In this document: one piece after another, positions 1,810 through 55,202 of the stretch
Numbering within the stretch: position 1 is the first letter of the stretch
Layout: every line of letters begins with the position of its first letter
Source of the DNA: a bacterium
GTDB taxonomy: Bacteria; Patescibacteriota; Minisyncoccia; Minisyncoccales; GCA-002788555
Direction: 5' to 3'
NCBI GenBank assembly: GCA_021158595.1
Contig: JAGGUF010000072.1
Span: 1-55,202, forward strand
DNA length: 55,202 bases
The notes under the pieces: model-generated
What the model saw: the letters and a program-made list of their open reading frames with translations, nothing else
What the model was told of the DNA's origin: nothing
The model's database searches: none
Translations under genes and position numbers: made by a program

Positions 1810-3474
1810 TTACTGAAGGGAATAGGTATCCTTAAGAGATCTTTCAATCTCAAAGGTTTTTTCTGTCCAGTTATCTGTTGCTGTTAGTTTCACCTTTTTA
1901 ATAATCTCTTGAGGAAGTTCTGTTGGGATAATTTTCAATTGGATAAGATACTCTTTAGAAAAATTAGAGGAGATGGTTCCAATATCTAAAACCAAGGTTT
2001 TTTTCTCTTGGTCAAAATTATATTTTACGCTTTGGGGAAAGAGTTTTTCTTCAAAAGAGACGCCTTCTGGAAGAGAGGTTTCTATCTTTACATTCTTTAA
2101 CTTATTTCCCTTATTTTCTATCTTAAAACCAACCACAAAAAGCCTTTCTCTTCCTACTTCCAAAACAGAATCAGAATTTCCAAAATCAAAGACATCTTTT
2201 GCCTGGTCTGGCAATGATTCTAAATCTGAATAAATCTTTTCATCAAAAGAAACCTTAGAAGATATCTTGGTCTGGAATTGCTTCTCAATGGTTCCAAAGG
2301 TAATTTTTTCTTTAATTACTGCATTTTCCTTTGAAAAGTCAGATTTTACTTTTACCTCAAACCCTACCATATCCTTTTCATAGGGACCAAGAGACAAAAG
2401 TTTAGGAAAGTTTTTATAAGAAAAGGTAACTGTTTTGCCCTCAACCATCCCTCCGGGGATTGCCTTAAGGGTGGAAAAGTCTAAAACATTACTTTCCAGT
2501 TCCACTTTTAAATTTAAATTTTTATAATAATTATCTCCCGTGTTTACAAATTCAATTATGTAATTTAACTTCTCTCCTGGAGAAGCAGCATAGTTGTATT
2601 CTCCATTTACCTTTCGAAAAACATCTAAGGTCGAAGTGGTAATTTTTAGTATCTTCTGAACAGAAGAAAGAGGAATAAATTCGTATAATCTCTCATCAAA
2701 TATACCAAACTCTGCCCTAAACAATTTTTCCTCCCCTACCTCTCCCTTAACCTTTCCTTTTATTTCTCTTTTTCCTGCCTCGTTTTCATTTAAACTTCCT
2801 AAATCAAAAACAAGTGAATTTTCTGTTCTCTTCTCATTCTCGGTTTCTTCTGAAACCTTTTCAAATCCCTCTGGTAAAAAAAGTCGCACCTGAACATTTT
2901 GTAAGGGAAAGGGAAAGCCAGATTGCCAGGTGAAAGAGATGGGAAACTCTTCTTCGGGATTTATTTCAGTAGGACAGTTCATAGAGAATAAAACAGAGGT
3001 TTCAGAAATCCGGGTAGAAAAAGAGGTTTGATTTTTAAACTGGGTAGAGAGTCCTTTGGGATTATAAATTAAGAATGCCTTGGCTTCTTTTACTTCCTCT
3101 TTTGTTCCAAAAATTATTCCTGAAAAACTCTCGCTCTTTTCTTTTCCTTTAGGAAGAATTTTAATTATTCTTTCTTCTCTTTTTTTAATCTTGCCATCCT
3201 TTGTAAAAACACCTGAAGGATACTCAAAGGTTAGATTGAGATTTTCAATGGAAACATTGCTTTGATTTTTTATATTTACAATCCAAGATATCTCCTTTCC
3301 AGAGGTTATCTCTTGGGGTCCTGAAATTTTAAGAATAATATCCTCCTTGGAGAAGGCATTTTGAAAAAAGAAAAAATAAAGGATAGCCCCTATCCCTACA
3401 ATTAGCAAAAATACAAAAAGGCCCAATGTCTCTTTTTTTGTCCAATGGATCTCTTGATGAAGATTCATATTCAA
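1810..3474 (-). CDS. Hypothetical large N-terminally anchored extracytoplasmic protein
   Basis: 554-aa ORF with an N-terminal TM helix followed by a long beta-rich sequence. Tightly packed with its neighbours. No motif recognised. Confidence 0.5.
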   Translation of the reverse strand: MNMNLHQEIHWTKKETLGLFVFLLIVGIGAILYFFFFQNAFSKEDIILKISGPQEITSGKEISWIVNIKNQSNVSIENLNLTFEYPSGVFTKDGKIKKREERIIKILPKGKEKSESFSGIIFGTKEEVKEAKAFLIYNPKGLSTQFKNQTSFSTRISETSVLFSMNCPTEINPEEEFPISFTWQSGFPFPLQNVQVRLFLPEGFEKVSEETENEKRTENSLVFDLGSLNENEAGKREIKGKVKGEVGEEKLFRAEFGIFDERLYEFIPLSSVQKILKITTSTLDVFRKVNGEYNYAASPGEKLNYIIEFVNTGDNYYKNLNLKVELESNVLDFSTLKAIPGGMVEGKTVTFSYKNFPKLLSLGPYEKDMVGFEVKVKSDFSKENAVIKEKITFGTIEKQFQTKISSKVSFDEKIYSDLESLPDQAKDVFDFGNSDSVLEVGRERLFVVGFKIENKGNKLKNVKIETSLPEGVSFEEKLFPQSVKYNFDQEKKTLVLDIGTISSNFSKEYLIQLKIIPTELPQEIIKKVKLTATDNWTEKTFEIERSLKDTYSLQ

Positions 3475-4359: not shown

Positions 4360-4488
4360 CCCCTCCCCCCTCCTTAATCCTCCCCCTCCCTGTGGGAGGG
4401 GGAGGATATAGGTGGGGGAGGGATTTCCCGCTCCACGCTCCACGCTTCAGGTAATTCTCAAACCCCTACCAAGTGGTTGGCAATTACA
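4360..4488. repeat. Hairpin-core repeat with extended flank (CACGCTTCAGG ... GGCAATTACA)
   Basis: Core 4360-4422: CCCCTCCCCCCTCCTTAATCCTCCCCCTCCC-TGTG-GGAGGGGGAGGATATAGGTGGGGGAGGG. The flank matches the reverse complement of 38248-38326. Confidence 0.85.
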
Positions 4489-4502: not shown

Positions 4503-5474
4503 ATGAAATCTAAAAAGAAAGAGAATCAATATGTAATTGGAGTTGATGCCGGAGCCACAAAAACTCTCAGTGGTTTGGCTAATTTAAATGGAAAAATTCT
4601 TGATCTTAAAGAAACCTCTTCTTCCAATCCGAGAAATGTAGGAATTAAAAAGGCTGCTGAAAATATCTCTTGTGGAATTAACAAATTATTAAGATTTAAT
4701 GCTGATAGGAAGGTAAAAAAGAAAATTGTCTCCATTTTTATTGGTCTTCCTGGTATAGCCGAAGAGTATAAAGATAGAAAGGATAAAATAACAAAAGAGA
4801 TATCCAAAAGATTACCGAAGGTTTTGAAGAATAAAATTATAGTAGAAAGTGACCAATTGGTGGCTTTCAGAGCAGCAACAGATGAAAAAAGAGGAATAGT
4901 GTTAATATCTGGTACAGGTTGCGTGGCTCATGGATGGGATGAGAAAAAGGAAGCGAAGTCAAGTGGATGGGGATACCTGGCTGATGAAGGCTCGGCTTTT
5001 TGGACAGGACAAAGGGTGCTTCAAGCAGTTCTAAAAGATCTTGATGGTCGAGGAGAAAAAACAAAACTAACCAAAGGTCTCTGCCAAAAACTCAAGGTAA
5101 AAACTCCTGAAGGATTGGTTAAAAGGGTTTATGAGAAAAATACAGTGGAAACAATCGCTTTGTTTTCTCTTATCTGCAACAAACTTTCTGCTCAGGATAA
5201 GGTAGCAAAAAACATTTTAAAAAAGGCTGGGTATGAAGCCAGTTTAGCGGCAAAAGTTGTCATCAAAAAATTAAATTTTCAAAGAAAAAAATTTCCTCTG
5301 GTATTAGCAGGAGGAATGTTTAACTCAGACATCTTTCTAAAGGCAGTTAAATTACATATAAGAAAAACTGCTCCCTTAGCAGACCTTATTGTTCTTAAGA
5401 AAAAGCCAATAATAGGTGCAATAAAATTAGCAATAGAATGTTTTACAAAGAGAAGAAGTAAGAATAAGTTGTAG
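4503..5474 (+). CDS. BadF/BadG/BcrA/BcrD-type ATPase (N-acetylglucosamine kinase-like)
   Basis: ASKHA-fold phosphate-1 motif VIGVDAGATKT and GTG motif LISGTGCVAHG; 323 aa. Confidence 0.55.
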   Translation: MKSKKKENQYVIGVDAGATKTLSGLANLNGKILDLKETSSSNPRNVGIKKAAENISCGINKLLRFNADRKVKKKIVSIFIGLPGIAEEYKDRKDKITKEISKRLPKVLKNKIIVESDQLVAFRAATDEKRGIVLISGTGCVAHGWDEKKEAKSSGWGYLADEGSAFWTGQRVLQAVLKDLDGRGEKTKLTKGLCQKLKVKTPEGLVKRVYEKNTVETIALFSLICNKLSAQDKVAKNILKKAGYEASLAAKVVIKKLNFQRKKFPLVLAGGMFNSDIFLKAVKLHIRKTAPLADLIVLKKKPIIGAIKLAIECFTKRRSKNKL

Positions 5475-5519
5475 TTGCCAACAAATCACTATCAACGAAA
5501 AGATAAGTTGAAGGATAAA

Positions 5520-5592
5520 GCCCTTGTAGTTCAATTGGATAGAACCTCTCCCTCCGGAGGAGAAAATGCAGGTTCAAGTCCTGCCAAGGGCA
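5520..5592 (+). tRNA. tRNA-Arg (anticodon CCG)
   Basis: Cloverleaf read by hand: acceptor GCCCTTG/CAAGGGC, D arm GTTC/GAAC, anticodon arm TCTCC-CTCCGGA-GGAGA, T arm GCAGG-TTCAAGT-CCTGC, discriminator A. Confidence 0.9.
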
Positions 5593-5620
5593 TATCTGGT
5601 TGACATCTATAGGTTCGGAC

Positions 5621-5648
5621 TTGACAAAATTTCTTAGAACATTAAAAT
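5621..5648 (+). promoter_or_regulatory. Putative sigma70-type promoter for secG
   Basis: TTGACA (5621-5626), 16-nt spacer, TAAAAT (5643-5648). Lies 60 nt upstream of the secG start. Confidence 0.4.
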
Positions 5649-5708
5649 ATTATCTTCTTATCCTCTGATCAAAAATTCCTTTTAGACCTTCGCCTACTGT
5701 TTTCATTT

Positions 5709-6020: not shown

Positions 6021-7754
6021 TTGTTTTACCTTGAGAAATGGAAGAAAAACAAGAATAAGTGGCCGTCAAAAAGACAGTGGTTTTCTTTTTTCACTGTTAT
6101 TTCAAAAAGAGAAAAAACCCTCTTTTTTCTCTTTTTATTTTCAGGTATCCTCTCTTTAATTTTTTGGCATCATTTCTCTTATTTAGAGAATACTGAACTT
6201 CAACCAGCCGAGGGAGGAATTCTAAAAGAAGCAATAGTAGGACAACCTCAGTCTTTAAATCCTATTCTCTCCTTGCTAAATGATGCTGATAGAGACATTT
6301 CTGAACTTACCTTTGCCGGCCTTTTAAACTATGACAAAAATGGAAATTTGGTTTGCGATCTCTGTGAGAAATATGAAATAACTGATAAGGGAAAGGGTTT
6401 CGAATTTACCCTAAAGAAGAATCTTCTTTGGTCAGATAACAAAAAAATTACTGCTAACGATGTAGTCTTTACTATAGAAACTATTCAAAATCCAGAAATC
6501 CAGAGTCCTCTAAAACTCGTATGGAAAGATGTAAAGGTAGAAGCCATAAATGAAAGAAAGGTAAAATTTACCTTAGAAAATCCTTATCCTCTTTTTCTTA
6601 AAAATTTTACCTTAAAAATTATACCATCTCATATCTTCAAAGAAACCACACCCCAAGAATTTCCTACCATCTTAACAGAAAGGTTTGTTGCTTCAGGTCC
6701 ATTTAAAATAAAAAATATTGAGAAGGATAAAGAAAATAAAATTAAAAAAATCATCCTTGAAAGAAATCCAAACTATTATGGAAACTCACCATTCCTGGAA
6801 GGAATAGAAATAAGTTTTGTAAAGAACAAGAAAGAACTTTTGGGTATTAGAGAAGAGGAAACAAGTTTGTCTGGAATTTCAGCCGCAGAAAAAGAAGAAC
6901 TAAAAGAAGAGGATTTTAATTTTTATTCCTTTGCCCTTCCCCGGTCTTTTGCGCTATTTCTAAACCAACAAAATGAACTTCTTTCCAAAAAAGAGATAAG
7001 AGAAGCCCTGGCTTCAGCCACTAATAAAAAGGAAATTGTTGAGAAGGTTCTTTTAGGAGAAGGAAGAATAGTAGATGGTCCCTTTCTTAAAGAAAACAAA
7101 ATTGGAGGAGAAATAAAAAAATATGAGTTTAACTTAGAAAAAGCCAAAAAGATATTGGAAAATGCCGGCTGGAAGGATACTGACAATGATAACATTCGAG
7201 ACAAAACAATTAACGAAAAGAAGTTTTCTCTAAAATTCAACTTATTTTTGGTAAAACAACCAGAACTTGAAAAAACAGCAGAGATTATAGAAAAAGATTG
7301 GGAAAAAATAGGAGTTAAGATAAATATAAATCCTATGGAACCCCAAGAACTTCTCCAGGAACATATTGAAAAAAGAAACTATGATATCTTGCTTTTTGGT
7401 CAAGACATCTCAATCATTCCTGACCCCTATCCCTTTTGGGCTTCTTCCCAAAAGGAATATCCAGGTTTAAATCTGTCTTTATATCAAAACCCGGAGGTAG
7501 ATAAAATTTTAAAAAATGCTCGGACAGAAAACGATGAAAACAAAAGAAAAAAACTTCTTCAAGACTTCCAATTAAAACTTACCGAAGATATCCCCGCAAT
7601 TTTCCTTTATAGTCCAAATTATATTTATGCTGTAAGAAAAGAAATCAAAGGAATTGAAGGAAAATATATAAATGATATTTCAAAAAGATTTATAGGAATT
7701 GAAAATTGGTATATCAATGAAAAAAGGGTACCGAAGAAGAGTAACCAAAAATAA
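6021..7754 (+). CDS. ABC transporter substrate-binding protein, family 5 (peptide/nickel type)
   Basis: 577 aa with an N-terminal TM/signal anchor; family-5 SBP-like blocks (LNPILS..., NPNYYG, AGWKDTDNDNIRDK). The ORF opens with TTG, so the exact start is uncertain. Confidence 0.65.
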   Translation: MFYLEKWKKNKNKWPSKRQWFSFFTVISKREKTLFFLFLFSGILSLIFWHHFSYLENTELQPAEGGILKEAIVGQPQSLNPILSLLNDADRDISELTFAGLLNYDKNGNLVCDLCEKYEITDKGKGFEFTLKKNLLWSDNKKITANDVVFTIETIQNPEIQSPLKLVWKDVKVEAINERKVKFTLENPYPLFLKNFTLKIIPSHIFKETTPQEFPTILTERFVASGPFKIKNIEKDKENKIKKIILERNPNYYGNSPFLEGIEISFVKNKKELLGIREEETSLSGISAAEKEELKEEDFNFYSFALPRSFALFLNQQNELLSKKEIREALASATNKKEIVEKVLLGEGRIVDGPFLKENKIGGEIKKYEFNLEKAKKILENAGWKDTDNDNIRDKTINEKKFSLKFNLFLVKQPELEKTAEIIEKDWEKIGVKININPMEPQELLQEHIEKRNYDILLFGQDISIIPDPYPFWASSQKEYPGLNLSLYQNPEVDKILKNARTENDENKRKKLLQDFQLKLTEDIPAIFLYSPNYIYAVRKEIKGIEGKYINDISKRFIGIENWYINEKRVPKKSNQK

Positions 7755-9675: not shown

Positions 9676-9983
9676 TGTACAGTTTCACCACATTGTTTAC
9701 AATACTTTTTACAATAATAAGGAATTTCCTCCCCTTCCTTAATCCTCCCCCTCCCTCTGGGAGGAGGAAGAAATTGAGGAGATCCTCCTTAATCCTCCCC
9801 CTCCCTTTGGGAGCGGCGAGGATATAGATGGGTTTCCTTTCAAATCCTCCCCCTCCCTTTGGGAGGGGGAGGAGATAGGTGGGGGAGGGAAAAATAAAAA
9901 TAAATATAGGAAAAGGCAAAAGTCAAATACAAAGATTAAAGAGAAATTTGTCCTAATTGTGAACAACGTGGTGAAACTTTACA
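9676..9983. mobile_element. MITE-like non-coding element: 28-bp terminal inverted repeats enclosing three tandem hairpin cores
   Basis: Left end TGTACAGTTTCACCACATTGTTTACAAT (9676-9703). Reverse complement of the right end is TGTAAAGTTTCACCACGTTGTTCACAAT (9956-9983); 25/28 identical. The interior holds three core units (9738-9898). No ORF with coding character. Confidence 0.7.
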
Positions 9984-21906: not shown

Positions 21907-21927
21907 AGATTCTTATATGTGAGGTTT

Positions 21928-21996
21928 CCCTCCCCCACCTATATCCTCCCTCTCCCAGAGGGAGGGGGAGGATTAAGGAGGGGGTGAAACTGTACA
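21928..21996. repeat. Hairpin-core repeat (opposite orientation) plus partial terminal repeat
   Basis: CCCTCCCCCACCTATATCCTCCCTCTCCC-AGAG-GGAGGGGGAGGATTAAGGAGGGG, then GGTGAAACTGTACA (reverse complement of the 9676 terminal repeat start). Ends 1 nt before the stop codon of the 21998 gene. Confidence 0.8.
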
Positions 21997-36755: not shown

Positions 36756-36910
36756 TAAAGTTTCAGCACATTTAACCCCTCTTTGTATTCCTCCCCTTAA
36801 AAAGGGGGAGGAAATTGAGGTGTGGTATTCTCCTAAAAGAGAAAATAAGGACCCTCTCCAAATCCTCCCCCTCTCTCTGGGAGAGGAGGATTAAGGTGGG
36901 GGAGGAAAAG
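36756..36910. repeat. Repeat cluster: partial terminal repeat plus two Y/R hairpins
   Basis: TAAAGTTTCAGCACATTT (36756-36773) resembles the 9676 terminal repeat. Hairpins: CCTCCCC-TTAAAAA-GGGGAGG (36790-36811) and AATCCTCCCCCTCTC-TCT-GGGAGAGGAGGATT (36861-36892). Lies upstream of rpsT. Confidence 0.7.
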
Positions 36911-36950
36911 GTCAAATACACACCAAAGATACTGTAAATAAATCTTATTT

Positions 36951-38247: not shown

Positions 38248-38470
38248 TGTAATTGCCCACATCTTGATAAGGATCTGGGATTGCCTGAAGCGTGAAACGC
38301 AAATTTCCAAAATTAAATCTCAAATTCCCCCACCTATATCCTCCCCCTTCCAGAGGGAGGGGGAGGATTAAGGAGGGGATCCTAAATCCCAAACGTTTGG
38401 AATTTGGAATTTCGTTCGCCCAGCCCTACTTTTGGAACAAAAGTGGGGCTGGGTTTCGGATTTCTCCCCC
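38248..38470. repeat. Composite repeat: GGCAATTACA/CACGCTTCAGG flank (inverted), hairpin core, AT-rich units, GGGGCTGGG hairpin
   Basis: Core 38327-38378: CCCCCACCTATATCCTCCCCCTTCC-AGAG-GGAGGGGGAGGATTAAGGAGGGG. Hairpin 38419-38453: CCCAGCCCTACTTTTG-GAAC-AAAAGTGGGGCTGGG. Fills the holA/acyP convergent spacer. Confidence 0.85.
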
Positions 38471-41614: not shown

Positions 41615-41863
41615 CTTAAATGTTAGATGTCAAATCTCAAATCCATATGTCAAATCTCAAATCTAAATACAGTAAAGAAAAATCCGAAATTCTAAATCCT
41701 AATGTTTCAAATTTTAAACGTTTGGGATTTCGGATTTCCCTTCCCCTCCTTAATCCTCCCCCTCCCTCTGGGAGGGGGAGGATATAGGTGGGGGAGGGAA
41801 AATCCCAAATCCTAAATTCTAAACGTTTGAGATTTGGAACAAAAGTGGGGCTGGGTTTCGGAT
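41615..41863. repeat. Composite repeat: tandem ATGTCAAATCTCAAATC units, hairpin core, AT-rich units, half GGGGCTGGG module
   Basis: 17-nt direct repeat at 41627-41643 and 41647-41663. Core 41738-41798: CCCTTCCCCTCCTTAATCCTCCCCCTCCC-TCTG-GGAGGGGGAGGATATAGGTGGGGGAGGG. GGAACAAAAGTGGGGCTGGGTTTCGGAT at 41836-41863. Confidence 0.85.
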
Positions 41864-46497: not shown

Positions 46498-48149
<1,652 letters not shown>

Positions 48150-49145: not shown

Positions 49146-49353
49146 AACCAATAAGGTTATATCCAAGATGAAAGTTGACACCTTTTTACCATCTTACATA
49201 TTATGGACAAAACTGGAAATATTTCCAATGTTTTTAATAATCCCTCCCCCTCCTTAATCCTCCCCCTCCCTTTGGGAGGGGGAGGATATAGGTGGGAGAG
49301 GGAAATCTTCCTCTATTAACTGTTAACTTTTATTTTGCATTCAACCAATAAGG
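49146..49353. repeat. Repeat copy flanked by 11-bp direct repeats (atpA/atpG spacer)
   Basis: AACCAATAAGG at 49146-49156 and 49343-49353. Core 49242-49302: CCCTCCCCCTCCTTAATCCTCCCCCTCCC-TTTG-GGAGGGGGAGGATATAGGTGGGAGAGGG. Confidence 0.75.
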
Positions 49354-52079: not shown

Positions 52080-52832
52080 TTATTTTTCACCCAAATCTTG
52101 AGACCTTGAATTTGCGACCTTTTGTTGTTGAGAATGCTCTGTGGCGCTAGTATAAAAAATGACTACCAGAGAAGAAAAGATAAGAGCCTGTATAAACCCC
52201 ACAATAATTTCTAATGCCAAAAATGGTAGAGGAACAAAATAGGCAATCAAAAAGGAACTAATTATCAAAAGCACCTCTCCGGCAAATATATTCCCAAACA
52301 ACCGAAAGGCAAGAGAAAAACACTTGGTAATCTCACTTATCCCTTCTAAAATGCCTACAAAAAAGAGAATAGGATTCTTGAAATTTAAAAATCTTTTAGA
52401 ATAGGTAAAAAAGCCTAATCGTTTAAGAGAAAGGATATTTATAAAAATAATAGAGAAAAGAGCCAAGCCAAGAGTAAGATTTAAATCAGAGGTTGGAGCC
52501 CGCAAAAAATGAAAAACTCCCAATCCTGGAAGCAATTCTACATAGTTACAAAAAAGAATAAGAATAAAAAGAGTAGCGGCTATAGGAAAAATCTCTTTGG
52601 TCTTTTTTCTATCACGGGTAATAGAATCAATGAAATTAAAAATAGACTCCAAAATCCATTCAGCAAAATTTTGGAGTCTGGAAGGAATAAACTTCCTATT
52701 TTTAAAAACAAAATAGAAAACAGCAAAAATAAGAATCTCAATAATGAGACTCAAAAGAAAGGTGTTTGTTATATCAAAACCAAAGAGCCCAAATAGTTTC
52801 TCTCCAGAAATAGTAATATCAGGCATCCCCAT
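52080..52832 (-). CDS. atpB: ATP synthase Fo a subunit
   Basis: Polytopic; conserved Arg helix SLAFRLFGNIFAGE. Confidence 0.9.
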   Translation of the reverse strand: MGMPDITISGEKLFGLFGFDITNTFLLSLIIEILIFAVFYFVFKNRKFIPSRLQNFAEWILESIFNFIDSITRDRKKTKEIFPIAATLFILILFCNYVELLPGLGVFHFLRAPTSDLNLTLGLALFSIIFINILSLKRLGFFTYSKRFLNFKNPILFFVGILEGISEITKCFSLAFRLFGNIFAGEVLLIISSFLIAYFVPLPFLALEIIVGFIQALIFSSLVVIFYTSATEHSQQQKVANSRSQDLGEK

Positions 52833-52944
52833 ATAATAGATATAAAGAAGTTTTTGTTCTTATTTTAGAGATTAAAAATCTCAATACCTTGTATTATTCT
52901 TTCTGCTAAAAATTATATACCTTTTTACCTATCTCTGTCAAGAT

Positions 52945-53053
52945 CCCTCCCTCACCTCTCTCCTCCCCCTTCCCAGAGGGAGGAGGATTGGGGAGGATCT
53001 CCTCAGTTATCCTCCCCCTCCCTTTGGGAGGGGGAGGACTAAGGAGGGGTGGG
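52945..53053. repeat. Two adjacent hairpin-core repeats upstream of the atp operon
   Basis: 52945-52996: CCCTCCCTCACCTCTCTCCTCCCCCTTCCC-AGAG-GGAGGAGGATTGGGGAGG. 53009-53053: ATCCTCCCCCTCCC-TTTG-GGAGGGGGAGGACTAAGGAGGGGTGGG. Confidence 0.85.
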
Positions 53054-53137
53054 AGAATATCAGATCTTACCAAACTCTTTATTTAGCCAATGGATGATCT
53101 TTAACTGTACCCTATGTACCCGACGAGTTCTACCCCC

Positions 53138-53166
53138 TTGACAAGATTTTGGTGATATGCTATAAT
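53138..53166 (+). promoter_or_regulatory. Perfect consensus sigma70 promoter with extended -10
   Basis: TTGACA (53138-53143), 17-nt spacer, TGcTATAAT (-10 at 53161-53166). Confidence 0.7.
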
Positions 53167-53170
53167 GTAG

Positions 53171-53534
53171 ACGGAAAAATAAAGGAGGCTTTGAAAATTA
53201 AAGCGTATGGGCCAGATTGACCTCGCTCCTTAAGATTTAAGAGCAGGGTCGGTCAGCCCTCGCTATTATTAGTAATGAGTGCCTCCCAGCCCCACCTTTT
53301 GGCTGAAGATTTTAGCCAAAAGTGGGGCTGGGTGCACTCCTTACTAAAGGAGTAATAGCACTTTTACAAAGGCACTCAAAGGGGAAGGAGAGAATAATTC
53401 TCTGTGGCCAAGGATTGCTTATCAATATACAAAATGGTAAGTAATCCTCGGCCACAGAGATTTGCAATTTCAGTGATTCAATGACGAAAAAAAATGGGCC
53501 AATAAAAATAAAAGTTAGGAGGTGAAAAGAAAAA
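53171..53534 (+). ncRNA. Candidate structured RNA / long 5' leader
   Basis: No credible ORF. Three long hairpins: H1 53209-53259 (with G-U pairs that only work on the + strand), H2 53271-53345 (contains the GGGGCTGGG repeat hairpin 53285-53332), H3 53399-53460. Confidence 0.4.
53399..53460 (+). promoter_or_regulatory. Long hairpin following a conserved AGCAC box (unit 1)
   Basis: TCTCTGTGGCC/GGCCACAGAGA plus AGGATT/AATCCT. The loop contains TTATCAAT...TGGTA. Box AGCACTTTTACAAAGGCACTCAAAGGGGAAGGAGA at 53357-53391. Confidence 0.55.
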
Positions 53535-53894
53535 ATGGAGGAAGAAATGAAAGAGGAAAAAAAGGAAAGGCCATCGCATCCTCCAAGGGAAGAATTCCTT
53601 GCTGTGAAGACAGCGAGGGAACTGATAAAGAAGAGAAGTGAAGAGATACAGAAAATACGAGAGAGACAATCGAAAGCAACCAAGTTTTTGGTCGCCCTCG
53701 ATGATATTCGTCAAGAACTACAAGTAAACTTCATTAAATTTACGTTCCAAGACGGAACAATGATTATCAGGGATGTAGACGAAAAGCGGTTCTACATACA
53801 AAAGGGGAACGAAAGAAAAGAGATTGACGTTCAGAAGGACTATGACCTCGTGCTCCATCTAGCGAAGCAGAAAGTATTACAGGTTGAAGGATAG
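53535..53894 (+). CDS. Hypothetical protein (orphan, E/K/R-rich)
   Basis: 119 aa. A strong Shine-Dalgarno AGGAGGTGA sits 9 nt upstream, unlike most genes in the window. Composition is visibly GC-richer than the neighbouring genes. Confidence 0.6.
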   Translation: MEEEMKEEKKERPSHPPREEFLAVKTARELIKKRSEEIQKIRERQSKATKFLVALDDIRQELQVNFIKFTFQDGTMIIRDVDEKRFYIQKGNERKEIDVQKDYDLVLHLAKQKVLQVEG

Positions 53895-54037
53895 AAATAA
53901 AACACCTTTTATTTTTTCTCCTTCCTTCCTTTTTTCAGTCCATAAATTGAGTTTGTGGATTGAAAAAAGCCCTCAACCTTAAGGGTTGAGGGGAAAAGCA
54001 CCTTAAAAAGGCACTCAAAGAGGAAGGAGAAGGAGAA

Positions 54038-54092
54038 TTCACATCACCCGAATTGTTTATCAATTTTTGGTAGATAGTTCGGGTGATGTGAA
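54038..54092 (+). promoter_or_regulatory. Perfect 15-bp hairpin occluding the ribosome-binding site of the next ORF (unit 2)
   Basis: TTCACATCACCCGAA / TTCGGGTGATGTGAA. The 3' arm contains GGTGAT (SD-like) and ends 2 nt before the ATG at 54095. The loop contains TTATCAAT...TGGTA. Box AGCACCTTAAAAAGGCACTCAAAGAGGAAGGAGA at 53997-54030. Confidence 0.6.
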
Positions 54093-54094
54093 AA

Positions 54095-54970
54095 ATGAAT
54101 ATAATAAAGAAAAAAAAGGTGGTGAAGGTACAGCTGAAGGGACAGGGCACGGGCTATAGTGCCCTGGACAAGGAATTCATAAGGTTCATAGAGGAAAGAG
54201 GCATCACTCCGCTCCGCAGAGAATCAGGCCTCATTCGCCATACCTCCTGGCAGTACGAGACATACGTGTTCGGAAAAAGGTACTTCCAGAAATTCGAGGA
54301 AGACCTCAGGAAGGTGCTGGATGAGCGAGAAAAAGAGCTGAATATTAGAAGAGAAGTAGATTTTTATATAGAACAACTTTTCAGTTATGTAATCAGGTAT
54401 GCAAGAAGAGAAGGGATAGGCAATGAAGAAGAAATTGAGAAAGAAATCAAGGAATGGGGACTTAGTCCCCTTACGATAAAAATCATCAAATTACTCAGTG
54501 AATATCCAGAGGAAGCGGCGGATGATATAGTGGCAAAGATAGTGAAGCGAGCGATAGCAGAGGGAAAATACAAAAAAAATGAGGACTGGGAGGTCGCCCT
54601 ATGCGGGCGACGATGGAGTTTCGTAGAAGATGAACATTGGATTTACAAGGTAATTAAAGAGGATTGCCGGAAGGAAATTCTTCCAAAGTACCAAGAATTC
54701 AGAAGGTATCTTGGAGATTTCTATTTTGGCAGCGAACTTTCCTCCGCCTCCATCGATGAGCAGAAAGAAGCGTTGAAAAGATGGGGAGAAGCAGCCAAAA
54801 AGCTTAGAGAAGTGCTCGGAAAGTCCGTGGGCATTTACCCAGATTGCATTTATCTGGGTAAATGTAGTGAGGAAAATCTAAAAAAAGCCAGAGAGGCGGT
54901 GAAAGTCTTTGGGATGTCAGTAATACCAATGCCCCAGTACAAAGACCAGTTTATCGTAGTAATCCAGTAA
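54095..54970 (+). CDS. Hypothetical protein (orphan)
   Basis: 291-aa ORF with C/G-ending codons (CTG, GGC, CGC, GCC, TAC) that are rare elsewhere in the window. No motif recognised. Confidence 0.6.
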   Translation: MNIIKKKKVVKVQLKGQGTGYSALDKEFIRFIEERGITPLRRESGLIRHTSWQYETYVFGKRYFQKFEEDLRKVLDEREKELNIRREVDFYIEQLFSYVIRYARREGIGNEEEIEKEIKEWGLSPLTIKIIKLLSEYPEEAADDIVAKIVKRAIAEGKYKKNEDWEVALCGRRWSFVEDEHWIYKVIKEDCRKEILPKYQEFRRYLGDFYFGSELSSASIDEQKEALKRWGEAAKKLREVLGKSVGIYPDCIYLGKCSEENLKKAREAVKVFGMSVIPMPQYKDQFIVVIQ

Positions 54971-55060
54971 TCCCTTCTCCTTCCCTTTTTTCCCTTTTTC
55001 TAGCGGACAAAAATTTGTCAATTAGAAAAAGGAAAATAGCACTTTAAAAAATTCAAAATT

Positions 55061-55150
55061 CCTCCTGCTGATTAAGATTCTAAGAATCGCGAATTTACAC
55101 AAATATAAACACGAATTTTCGCGAATTTTAGAGTTTTAATCAGCAGGAGG
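55061..55150 (+). promoter_or_regulatory. Perfect 15-bp outer hairpin ending at an ATG (unit 3)
   Basis: CCTCCTGCTGATTAA / TTAATCAGCAGGAGG enclose an inner TCGCGA-containing repeat pair. The 5' arm carries anti-SD-like CCTCC and the 3' arm AGGAGG. AGCACTTTAAAAAA box at 55038. Confidence 0.55.
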
Positions 55151-55202
55151 ATGAAACTTCTGCTGAGGAGGAGAAAGATGAGAGAAGGAGAAGGAAGAAA
55201 AA
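55151..55202 (+). CDS. Partial ORF running off the window end
   Basis: ATG at 55151 and an in-frame ATG at 55178. The latter is preceded by GAGGAGGA at 5-nt spacing and is the more likely start. Only 17 codons are visible. Confidence 0.25.
   Translation, partial: MKLLLRRRKMREGEGRK

Follow-up and report, generated by a model that had tools for sequence, protein, structure and literature searches.

What does a conserved box do when, followed by a long hairpin, it stands before one gene after another of a small bacterial operon? The question is raised by the last 2.1 kb of a 55,202-nucleotide stretch of Patescibacteriota DNA (contig JAGGUF010000072.1; the whole 55-kb stretch is hereafter called the window), where an operon on the + strand, diverging from the ATP synthase operon, contains three such units. 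An earlier reading made from the sequence alone (the sequence-only reading) had taken them for dedicated translational or transcriptional control repeated gene by gene, typical of tightly silenced cargo such as toxins or phage genes, or else for recombination or cassette boundaries. From the analysis described here, we see about an even chance that the units are internal cis-regulatory RNA modules of one mRNA, in which the ribosome-binding site (RBS) is closed by a hairpin or a pyrimidine tract, a boxA-like site recruits Nus factors and the RBS is opened later.

Box 1 (53357-53391; window features lie on the + strand unless stated otherwise) opens with the 11-mer GCACTTTTACA (53358-53368), predicted to be mostly single-stranded, and continues with GGCACTCAAAG and the purine tract GGGGAAGGAGA. 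Box 2 (53997-54037, its near-identical part ending at 54030) is built in the same order from the 11-mer GCACCTTAAAA (53998-54008), GGCACTCAAAG and the purine tract GAGGAAGGAGAAGGAGAA. Box 3 (55038-55050) retains only the 5' half of the box, AGCACTTTAAAAA at 55038, with the 11-mer GCACTTTAAAA (55039-55049), and has no purine tract. The 24-nt box core AAAGGCACTCAAAGRGGAAGGAGA, with up to three mismatches allowed, is present only at 53368 and 54007 in the 55 kb and is absent from all of 100 shuffled sequences. The near-identity of boxes 1 and 2 and the partial likeness of box 3, both pointed out in the sequence-only reading, are real and far beyond chance.

The three long hairpins that follow the boxes are likewise real, with longer arms than had been noted before. 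Hairpin 1 (53396-53463) has arms of 29 nt (53396-53424 and 53435-53463) and contains no Shine-Dalgarno (SD) sequence. Hairpin 2 (54038-54092) has arms of 26 nt (54038-54063 and 54067-54092), fully paired when four G.U pairs are counted among the 26, and hairpin 3 (55060-55151) has arms of 34 nt (55060-55093 and 55118-55151), in which CCTCC pairs with AGGAGG. As had also been noticed, hairpins 1 and 2 have an apical sequence in common, ATTGYTTATCAAT, at 53414 and 54052. Compared with dinucleotide shuffles, the whole intergenic regions of units 1, 2 and 3 fold with z-scores of -9.3, -12.4 and -11.0, respectively. Apart from a GC-rich genome-wide repeat, described below, all long hairpins of the window lie in its last 2 kb. 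A search of positions 52800-55202 against Rfam 15 gave no family at the gathering threshold; the sub-threshold matches are to generic hairpins, mostly microRNA models.

The units are not confined to the window. Gene 4, the last gene of the operon, encodes a DHH-family protein, which was used as the anchor for fetching the neighbourhoods of relatives (36%-100% identity), and at least 26 copies of the units were counted over nine related loci. L001, a metagenome contig 99.8% identical to the window, was used to read the operon past the window end. The DHH protein is 67% identical to this anchor in L008, 64% in L031, 52% in L009, 48% in L040 and L034, 45% in L033 and 36% in L037. In L008, L031, L009, L040, L034 and L033, rows of small unknown open reading frames (ORFs) are separated by spacers of 90-870 nt that consist of the same modules: the stop codon is followed by a pyrimidine tract, which may form the 3' arm of a terminator; next come a hairpin with the U-run in its stem and a second, GC-rich one that varies in sequence; an A-rich spacer then leads to the box, and a long hairpin reaches up to the next start codon. 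Locus L017 (Ca. Azambacteria) contains one more copy, in which the purine tract of the box is itself the SD sequence, 8 nt before the ATG, while the most distant relative, L037, has ordinary promoters and SD sequences without the box. The relatives with these elements belong to Ca. Azambacteria and Minisyncoccia, both of the Patescibacteria group. When viral, genome and metagenome collections were searched with the long box pattern AGCACNTTN{4,9}CACTCAAAN{0,6}GGAAGG, L017 was the sole true match, the others being chance or coding matches. Between the islands, only the DHH gene is homologous and the remaining ORFs are unrelated; the non-coding scaffold is therefore better conserved than its cargo. 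The sequence-only reading had named a lack of recurrence in homologous loci as grounds for its own refutation; since the units recur in L008, L031, L033, L009, L040, L034 and L017, that refutation fails, and the proposal of a dedicated cis-regulatory RNA repeated cistron by cistron is supported.

Within the window, pyrimidine tract 1 (53906-53931; TTTTTTCTCCTTCCTTCCTTTTTT) begins 12 nt past the stop codon of gene 1, and pyrimidine tract 2 (54971-54999) lies directly 3' of that of gene 2. The complementarity of both to the purine tracts, and the long-range pairing that it would allow, had been proposed before; such pairing is indeed predicted in the minimum free energy (MFE) folds, where pyrimidine tract 1 pairs with purine tract 2. 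Hairpin A (53929-53969), whose stem takes in the U-run and an A-run, is a module kept in L008, L031 and L033, and hairpin A2 (54989-55036; TTTTTCTAGCGGAC...GTCAATTAGAAAAAGG) is kept in L008 and L031. Hairpin B (53970-53993) is GC-rich, varies in sequence between units and ends 4-7 nt 5' of the box, which is the position of boxB in an rrn leader. On the minus strand (53992-53970), hairpin B together with a T-run scores as an intrinsic terminator.

The hairpins form in the sense-strand RNA and are maintained by selection. Over six loci, 17 of 18 hairpins are more stable as + strand RNA than as the reverse complement: hairpin 1 has a folding energy of -41.4 against -36.9 kcal/mol, hairpin 2 of -37.7 against -24.6, hairpin 3 of -50.5 against -41.4 and hairpin A of -21.3 against -12.7 kcal/mol, with another example at -31.7 against -16.0 kcal/mol. 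The 18 hairpins hold 52 G.U pairs in total, and they are weaker on the other strand because these pairs become C.A mismatches there. Units 1 and 2 of the window, two units of L008 and one strain variant were aligned as class-I hairpins over a 25-bp helix. In this alignment, 95.9% of the cells are paired and 11 of the 25 pairs are changed on both sides, values reached by none of 500 shuffles; sliding the partner by one to three columns leaves only 35%-49% paired. The earlier statement that structure, not sequence, is conserved in the hairpins is borne out by these compensatory changes. Read directly, hairpins 1 and 2 share their apical half, while their basal stems are rewritten, with six of 11 pairs changed and all of the changes compensated. 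Hairpin 3 is homologous to hairpins in L008 (7148-7205) and L031, and in this family the 3' arm with AGGAGG is invariant, the changes in the 5' arm being transitions that keep wobble pairing. In L031 (about 1800-2030), the loop of the unit-3-type hairpin is enlarged by some 200 nt of short repeats of the AAATCCGAAA type. The bias towards the sense strand and the compensatory changes argue against a cruciform or other DNA-level role, against antisense RNA and against attC-type sites. With 25-34 near-perfect pairs, the stems also exceed the length of double-stranded RNA, about 20 bp or more, that is typical of an RNase III site.

The standard of comparison for the box was the boxA consensus GYTCTTTAANA, which is based on boxA sequences of rRNA and suhB (PMC5725501). 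Six perfect matches are found in 4.5 kb of L040, where every spacer has GCTCTTTAAAA or GTTCTTTAAAA, and one, GCTCTTTAAAA, in L009, immediately 5' of the DHH gene's anti-SD hairpin; all are intergenic and in the sense orientation. Their position is homologous to that of the window boxes, 5' of an SD-hiding hairpin before the DHH gene or its partner. The background is two perfect consensus matches per 106 kb (the window, both strands), so about 0.1 matches would be expected in L040. The sequence GTTCTTTAAAA is the boxA of the CRISPR leader of L. pneumophila Lens, which is active experimentally and, in the leader of a synthetic CRISPR array, increased array transcription about ten-fold (PMC7862264). 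Copies elsewhere are less exact: GCACTTTTACA and GCACCTTAAAA of the window have two mismatches to the consensus each and GCACTTTAAAA has one, the L033 copies read GTTCTTTGAGA, with one mismatch, and L008, L031, L017 and L034 have GCACATT(G/A)AAA. Over the 26 copies, G1, Y2, C4, T6 and T7 are each present in 26, A9 in 24 and A11 in 25, and only positions 3, 5 and 8 vary. At the suhB boxA, a C4/T6 mutation abolishes Nus recruitment (PMC5725501). The probability of being unpaired is 0.60 in the box and 0.38 in its flanks (p = 2.7e-5), and in most copies a hairpin of variable sequence ends 4-7 nt 5' of the box, which corresponds to the boxB-boxA order of rrn leaders. Without exception the copies are intergenic and in sense, and those of the window are downstream of the promoter at 53138. 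Judged by its sequence, the core of the box is boxA-like and a candidate site for Nus binding.

Three other identities were tried for the box and rejected. It has no -10/-35 match that would make it a sigma-70 promoter. A promoter of the T3/T7 type, suggested by a likeness to that of T3, was dropped, since the relatives converge on boxA and no phage-type polymerase is in sight. A mini-ORF of four codons, consisting of the SD sequence GGAGGTGAGAAAA and ATG AAA GCT CTT TAA, can be read in three promoter-proximal copies of L040 (880-900, 1577-1597 and 2432-2452), while the 23 others have no start codon.

The geometry between box and start codon was measured over the 26 copies in the nine loci. 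Box and start codon are typically 55-90 nt apart, and a hairpin of 22-34 bp takes up this space. It starts 0-5 nt past the box, or about 25 nt past it in copies with the GGCACTCAAAG/purine extension, and in about 20 of the 26 it ends no more than about 5 nt from the start codon. The 3' arms carry GGUGAU, GGAGGU or AGGAGG, paired to AUCACC, ACCUCC or CCUCCU, and in about half of the cistrons the SD sequence or the start codon lies within the 3' arm. For hairpin 2, the sequence-only reading was right in that the stem ends 2 nt before the ATG (54095), with the SD sequence GGTGAT of the 3' arm paired to ATCACC; it was mistaken in calling GGTGAT the only SD-like sequence of the unit, as GGAAGGAGAAGGAGAA stands directly 5' of the hairpin. 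The SD sequestration that it proposed is real for unit 2 and recurs as anti-SD pairing in L008, L031, L033, L009, L040 and L034. Units 2 and 3 abut an ATG, as described; the description needs the correction that unit 1 is 71 nt away from the start of gene 1 and hides no SD sequence. The ATG said to end hairpin 3 is indeed at its foot (55151), but gene callers place the start of gene 3 27 nt further on, in frame, at 55178, with an SD sequence of its own. In the MFE fold, this purine-rich start region is closed by pyrimidine tract 2. Over the region from -110 to +25, island genes fold with -0.255 MFE per nucleotide, compared with -0.172 in 44 control genes of the window (Mann-Whitney U, p = 3e-7).

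Genes 1 to 4 and all three units form a single polycistronic transcript. A promoter scan of 52800-55202 found only one strong promoter on the + strand, at 53138-53166 (TTGACA and TATAAT separated by 17 nt, with a TG extension and a 12/12 match), and a near-identical promoter is conserved in L008. A terminator scan found none on the + strand between this promoter and the window end, and a canonical terminator, read in L001, is located 3' of gene 4. With one promoter, no internal terminator on the + strand and a terminator only after gene 4, the boxes and hairpins are located inside one polycistronic mRNA, a point that, like the boxA likeness of the 5' half of the box, the sequence-only reading had missed.

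In the mechanism that we favour, each module comprises, in this order, a small variable hairpin, an A-rich spacer, the single-stranded boxA-like element, in some copies GGCACTCAAAG and the SD-like purine tract, and lastly the long near-perfect hairpin, with the SD sequence in its 3' arm or with that arm reaching the start codon; stop codons are each followed by a C/U-rich tract. The emerging hairpin, a structure for which the evidence has been given above, would close the RBS, a task that would fall to the pyrimidine tract for gene 3. With the RBS closed, transcription would therefore be uncoupled from translation. Rho prefers RNA that is C/U-rich and G-poor, and the untranslated, C/U-rich spacers of 150-700 nt would expose the polymerase to premature termination of the Rho type. 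By analogy with boxA in rrn operons, the leaders of CRISPR arrays and lambda nut sites, and as its sequence and position suggest, the boxA-like element would recruit NusB/S10 and other Nus factors, reloading a termination-resistant complex at each cistron. The box may also tether the RNA to the polymerase and so help to repress translation, as at suhB, the ParE-like toxin gene and lambda N. In the last and weakest step, RNase III may cut the duplexes of 25-34 bp, removing the anti-SD arm and separating the cistrons, in the manner of the lambda N leader and the rrn leader-trailer helix; or else the pyrimidine tract may be unzipped by ribosomes that terminate 1-40 nt upstream of it. A bolder version would have each cistron packaged like an rRNA gene. 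A site of the boxB-boxA type and a leader strand of GGCACTCAAAG and purine tract, held by the Nus-modified polymerase, would form a helix, bracketing the ORF, with the post-stop pyrimidine "trailer", and RNase III would cut it to yield circularised, stable monocistronic mRNAs that are translated only after processing, the whole being a portable scaffold for swapped small genes. We regard this version as decidedly doubtful.

Several observations weigh against the mechanism that we favour. No copy in the window is a perfect boxA: A replaces T at position 3 throughout, and there is a second deviation in unit 2 (C at position 5) and in unit 1 (T at position 8). In L008, the variant GCACATTGAAA departs from the consensus at positions 3, 5 and 8. 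Position 5 is A or C rather than T in 13 of the 26 copies, and T5 is equivalent to U-141 of E. coli, mutation of which blocks formation of the antitermination complex on the rrn transcript (PMC10250234). The window and the fetched loci contain no rRNA genes, in whose leaders the boxA form of the lineage would be seen. Genes for nusB and rnc were searched for in the window and neither was found, nor was rho seen there; nusB and rnc genes are seen in the relative L033. SD sequestration is not universal: the unpaired probability of the SD-to-AUG region is bimodal and, over 32 island genes, does not differ from that of the 44 controls, whose starts were estimated (p = 0.41). With an unpaired probability of 0.31 for this region, gene 2 is the only gene of the window that is closed directly by its own hairpin, whereas the RBS of gene 1 is predicted to be open (0.89) and hairpin 1 sequesters nothing. 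Any purine tract can pair with any pyrimidine tract, at -9 to -33 kcal/mol and mostly below -15, without cognate specificity; upstream and downstream pyrimidine tracts serve equally well as partners, and because all combinations pair, covariation is uninformative about the long-range helix. Finally, cleavage by RNase III is something that we infer purely from the stems.

A serious rival, which we consider somewhat unlikely, is that the box is recognised not by Nus factors but by a protein or small RNA specific to the lineage or the island. The units would then be purely translational operators, comparable to the start-associated sequences of Cluster K mycobacteriophages, for which such a factor is suspected, and the likeness to boxA would be a coincidence or reflect only the need for an A/U-rich single-stranded segment. 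The window-type box (GCACWTTRAAA, GGCACTCAAAG and purine tract) fits such a factor, being off the boxA consensus at positions 3, 5 and 8, which also weighs against the Nus mechanism, and having additional conserved sequence that boxA lacks; the purine tract that is itself the SD sequence in L017 and the conserved apical sequence of hairpins 1 and 2, as for a protein-binding loop, point the same way. There is also a precedent for unexplained gene-by-gene boxes with an SD core (PMC3203893). Yet the seven perfect boxA matches of L040 and L009 are at the homologous position, the invariant positions of the box are exactly those that it has in common with boxA, and the islands encode no conserved candidate regulator, since they share only the DHH enzyme. 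It is quite unlikely that the hairpins are mainly punctuation for processing and stability, RNase III sites that give stable monocistronic mRNAs as in the T7 early region, with the box as a translation-initiation leader that has no role in transcription. Such a function would account for near-perfect, sense-specific duplexes of 25-34 bp, longer than the hiding of an SD sequence needs, present in every intergenic region and absent from the rest of the window, and rnc is present in the relative L033. It leaves unexplained, however, the invariant single-stranded 11-mer with its match to boxA and the regular placement of SD sequences and start codons in the 3' arm, and it is compatible with the Nus mechanism rather than exclusive of it.

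The remaining alternatives remove the units from the sense-strand mRNA altogether. Were they DNA-level elements, whether recombination sites, attC-like cassette boundaries or miniature mobile palindromes, the presence of unrelated genes in the same frames would be explained, as would the wholly different accessory genes set among conserved non-coding modules, the varied contexts of the islands (the ATP synthase operon, tRNA genes, and rpsP/khpA with an rve integrase) and the homology of L006, which begins exactly at the foot of hairpin 1. We nevertheless hold this to be very improbable, and the boundaries envisaged in the sequence-only reading are not supported: the strand-asymmetric hairpins are rich in G.U pairs, which weaken the complementary strand, whereas attC folds from the bottom strand; inspection by eye, with no pattern search, revealed no GTTRRRY/RYYYAAC cores at the hairpin feet; no integron integrase is encoded within 10 kb in any locus and no tyrosine recombinase nearby, the only candidate being a gene of the rve_3 transposase type in L032; and the position of the hairpins is tied to start codons and SD sequences. 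Hardly credible, in our view, is a minus-strand antisense RNA, with a CU-rich anti-SD motif and a terminator at 53992-53970, that acts on the leader of gene 2. The terminator-like hairpin with its T-run and weak sub-threshold matches to the Rfam models anti-hemB and Betaproteobacteria toxic small RNA, both of CU-rich small RNAs, at this place on the minus strand would agree with it, but the Rfam scores are far under the gathering thresholds, the hairpins are less stable on that strand, the best minus-strand promoter reaches just 9/12 and the terminator-like feature is missing at units 1 and 3.

The transcript begins with a 5' leader of roughly 190 nt (53170-53352) that forms several hairpins, the last of which is a small one (53337-53352) before box 1. 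The region 53170-53540 folds with an MFE of -145.6 kcal/mol (z = -9.3 against dinucleotide shuffles). A second boxA-like 11-mer, GCTCCTTAAGA, with one mismatch, is found at 53225, buried in a hairpin, and GAGTGCC at 53248 can pair with GCACTC at 53335 or with GGCACTC of box 1, a possible alternative pairing. Long structured leaders also follow the same type of promoter in L008, L033 and L017.

Gene 1 (53535-53894, with an alternative start at 53547) encodes a protein of 119 amino acids of no known family. Gene 2 (54095-54970) encodes an orphan of 291 amino acids, whose sole relative is 98% identical. The product of gene 3 (55178-55202, start as called, cut by the window end) is a Cys-rich protein of 90 amino acids. 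Gene 4 (L001 7421-8356) encodes 311 amino acids with DHH and DHHA1 phosphoesterase domains, and its start overlaps the stop codon of gene 3 in TGAAATG (L001 7147-8356, the start of gene 3 being window 55178). Its 57 homologues have the invariant motifs of the DHH family (H14-G-D-x-D-G, D63 and D90-H-H), and its predicted model (predicted local distance difference test score, pLDDT, 95) resembles the folds of pAp phosphatase, PggH, GdpP, NrnA and RecJ. On the strength of this model, gene 4 encodes a predicted NrnA/PggH-like DHH phosphoesterase, resembling nanoRNases and dinucleotide phosphodiesterases. The idea of toxin or phage cargo finds no backing here: genes 1-3 have no match in Pfam, PHROGs, PADLOC or NCBIfam, and the DHH protein has no relatives in IMG/VR or among GenBank phages. 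In L031, a small C-x2-C protein gene overlaps the DHH gene in the same way as gene 3. A two-gene core, consisting of a zinc-ribbon-like protein and the DHH enzyme, is suggested to be conserved at the end of each island.

The islands are found at different places in the chromosome, beside the atp genes in the window and after two tRNA genes in L008 (641-800), which suggests that the island is or was mobile. The genes rpsP and khpA-trmD normally form one operon; in L033 (2266-8440) and L032, the island is located between them, with a gene of the rve_3 transposase/integrase type at its far end. In L006, a population variant that is 98% identical, a methyltransferase gene that lies downstream of ribosomal protein genes (L23...S8; L006 1-6253) runs at its 3' end directly into the operon. 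The junction at 6254 corresponds to window 53394, exactly the foot of hairpin 1, and this variant lacks the promoter, the leader and box 1; with no more than about 12 nt of shared sequence, the junction is either a real rearrangement or an assembly chimera. Within L008, the spacers 3093-3219 and 5409-5535 are duplicates (127 nt, 91% identical), as are the 5' ends of three ORFs (3297-3372, 4401-4476 and 5618-5693), indicating tandem duplication of gene-plus-spacer units within the island.

A GC-rich palindromic repeat (CCCCTCC..TCCTCCCCCTCCC / GGGAGGGGGAGGA..GGTGGGGG) is scattered in the intergenic regions of the otherwise AT-rich genome, with at least 10 copies per 55 kb and copies on both sides of the operon. 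In the window it is found at 26-68, 4361-4423, 9730-9890, 21925-21985, 36860-36927, 38326-38383, 41713-41823, 47980-48096, 49241-49320 and 52945-53057, and past the window end at L001 8562-8679. It looks like an element of the repetitive extragenic palindromic (REP) or miniature inverted-repeat transposable element (MITE) type. An inverted repeat, AAATCCGAAAT / ATTTCGGATTT, that resembles the short repeats in the hairpin loop of L031 flanks one of these GC-rich elements at 41675-41742.

The single ingredients, boxA, anti-SD hairpins and RNase III hairpins, are each already known. BoxA and the Nus factors are usually associated with rRNA operons and lambdoid phages, besides a few mRNA or CRISPR leaders in which boxA is present once. 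In the literature, we found no description of boxA-type elements before every cistron of a protein-coding operon with RBS-hiding hairpins, nor of the GCACWTTRAAA variant or a boxA regulon in Patescibacteria. If the mechanism that we favour is true, this would be a protein-coding operon with a boxA-type element per cistron, each joined to a hairpin that holds the RBS shut, and its mRNA would be deliberately left untranslated and given the protection of a non-coding RNA. The operon and its relatives would be the first candidate boxA regulon in genomes of the Patescibacteria type, including the lineage-specific variant GCACWTTRAAA, and would define a structured RNA motif that is absent from Rfam. 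As an example of a non-coding scaffold better conserved than the genes framed by it, the system would bear on the exchange and silencing of small accessory genes in reduced genomes.

Among known systems, long RNase III hairpins separate the cistrons of the polycistronic RNA in the T7 early region; the stems of the window units are candidate sites for such cleavage. The T4 genes 38 and 25 have a split RBS, with a hairpin between SD and AUG that joins the two. Unit 2 of the window is similar, its hairpin being set between GGAG and the ATG at a distance of 2 nt from each, but this bridging geometry is limited to that unit and to L008 876, 3933 and 6604, the others being without a purine tract beside the hairpin. 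A hairpin-bridged RBS of the T4 gene 38 type was rejected as a general explanation, as it fits only copies with a purine tract beside the stem. The start-associated sequences of Cluster K mycobacteriophages (SAS) and their extended form (ESAS), of unknown function and suspected of a role in translation initiation, also consist of an asymmetric box with an SD core, placed in one orientation before many unrelated genes and often with inverted repeats (PMC3203893). The SAS is the 13-bp GGGATAGGAGCCC, 3-7 bp from the start; sequence and spacing are different in the window, and there is no phage context. The inverted repeats of the ESAS are upstream and do not support RNA pairing, whereas here the hairpins are between box and start, with compensatory changes and G.U pairs as evidence. 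The resemblance is conceptual only.

The rrn leader combines boxB-boxA-boxC with a leader-trailer helix that is cut by RNase III (PMC10250234), and shares with the units the order of small hairpin, boxA and a sequence able to form a long-range helix with a "trailer". The E. coli leader, TGCTCTTTAACAA-N18-TGTGTGGGCACTCGAAG, is about 85 nt 5' of the 16S gene (verified against 5,426 genomes). Compared with it, GCACTTTTACAA-AGGCACTCAAAG of box 1 matches at 10 of 12 positions in the boxA part and at 10 of 11 in the second segment, GGCACTC(G/A)AAG, a match that was unexpected. In the window, GGCACTCAAAG (53370-53380 and 54009-54019) agrees at 10 of 11 positions with GGCACTCGAAG of the E. coli rrn leader (L041 401-462), which there lies directly after boxC, on the leader strand of the 16S leader-trailer helix; this likeness may be due to chance. 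Unlike the rrn leader, the units flank protein genes, the gap from boxA to the second segment is 1-2 nt instead of 18-19 nt, and the complement of the purine tract is a low-complexity pyrimidine tract, so that cognate pairing is not demonstrable.

In the lambda N leader, as in the units, boxA is followed by a large structured region reaching the RBS of the next gene. RNase III cleavage relieves the repression of lambda N. This repression is exerted at a distance by Nus factors at nutL, across the structured leader (PMC5725501). The units differ in standing before each cistron, and neither an N-like protein nor a boxB hairpin of 15 nt is evident; in the window lineage the box is off consensus, the host is uncultivated and probably of the Patescibacteria type, and the locus is not a phage. 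At suhB, the boxA is 6 nt from the SD sequence, Nus factors repress translation and Rho causes polarity; a ParE-like toxin of C. koseri is under the same kind of control (PMC5725501). The boxA of CRISPR leaders allows readthrough of long untranslated RNA (PMC7862264). The units share with these leaders the presence of a boxA outside rRNA, in suhB also close to an SD sequence. The difference is one of number and architecture: a single boxA per transcript there, against three in 2 kb of the window and six in 4.5 kb of L040, each with a long anti-SD hairpin.

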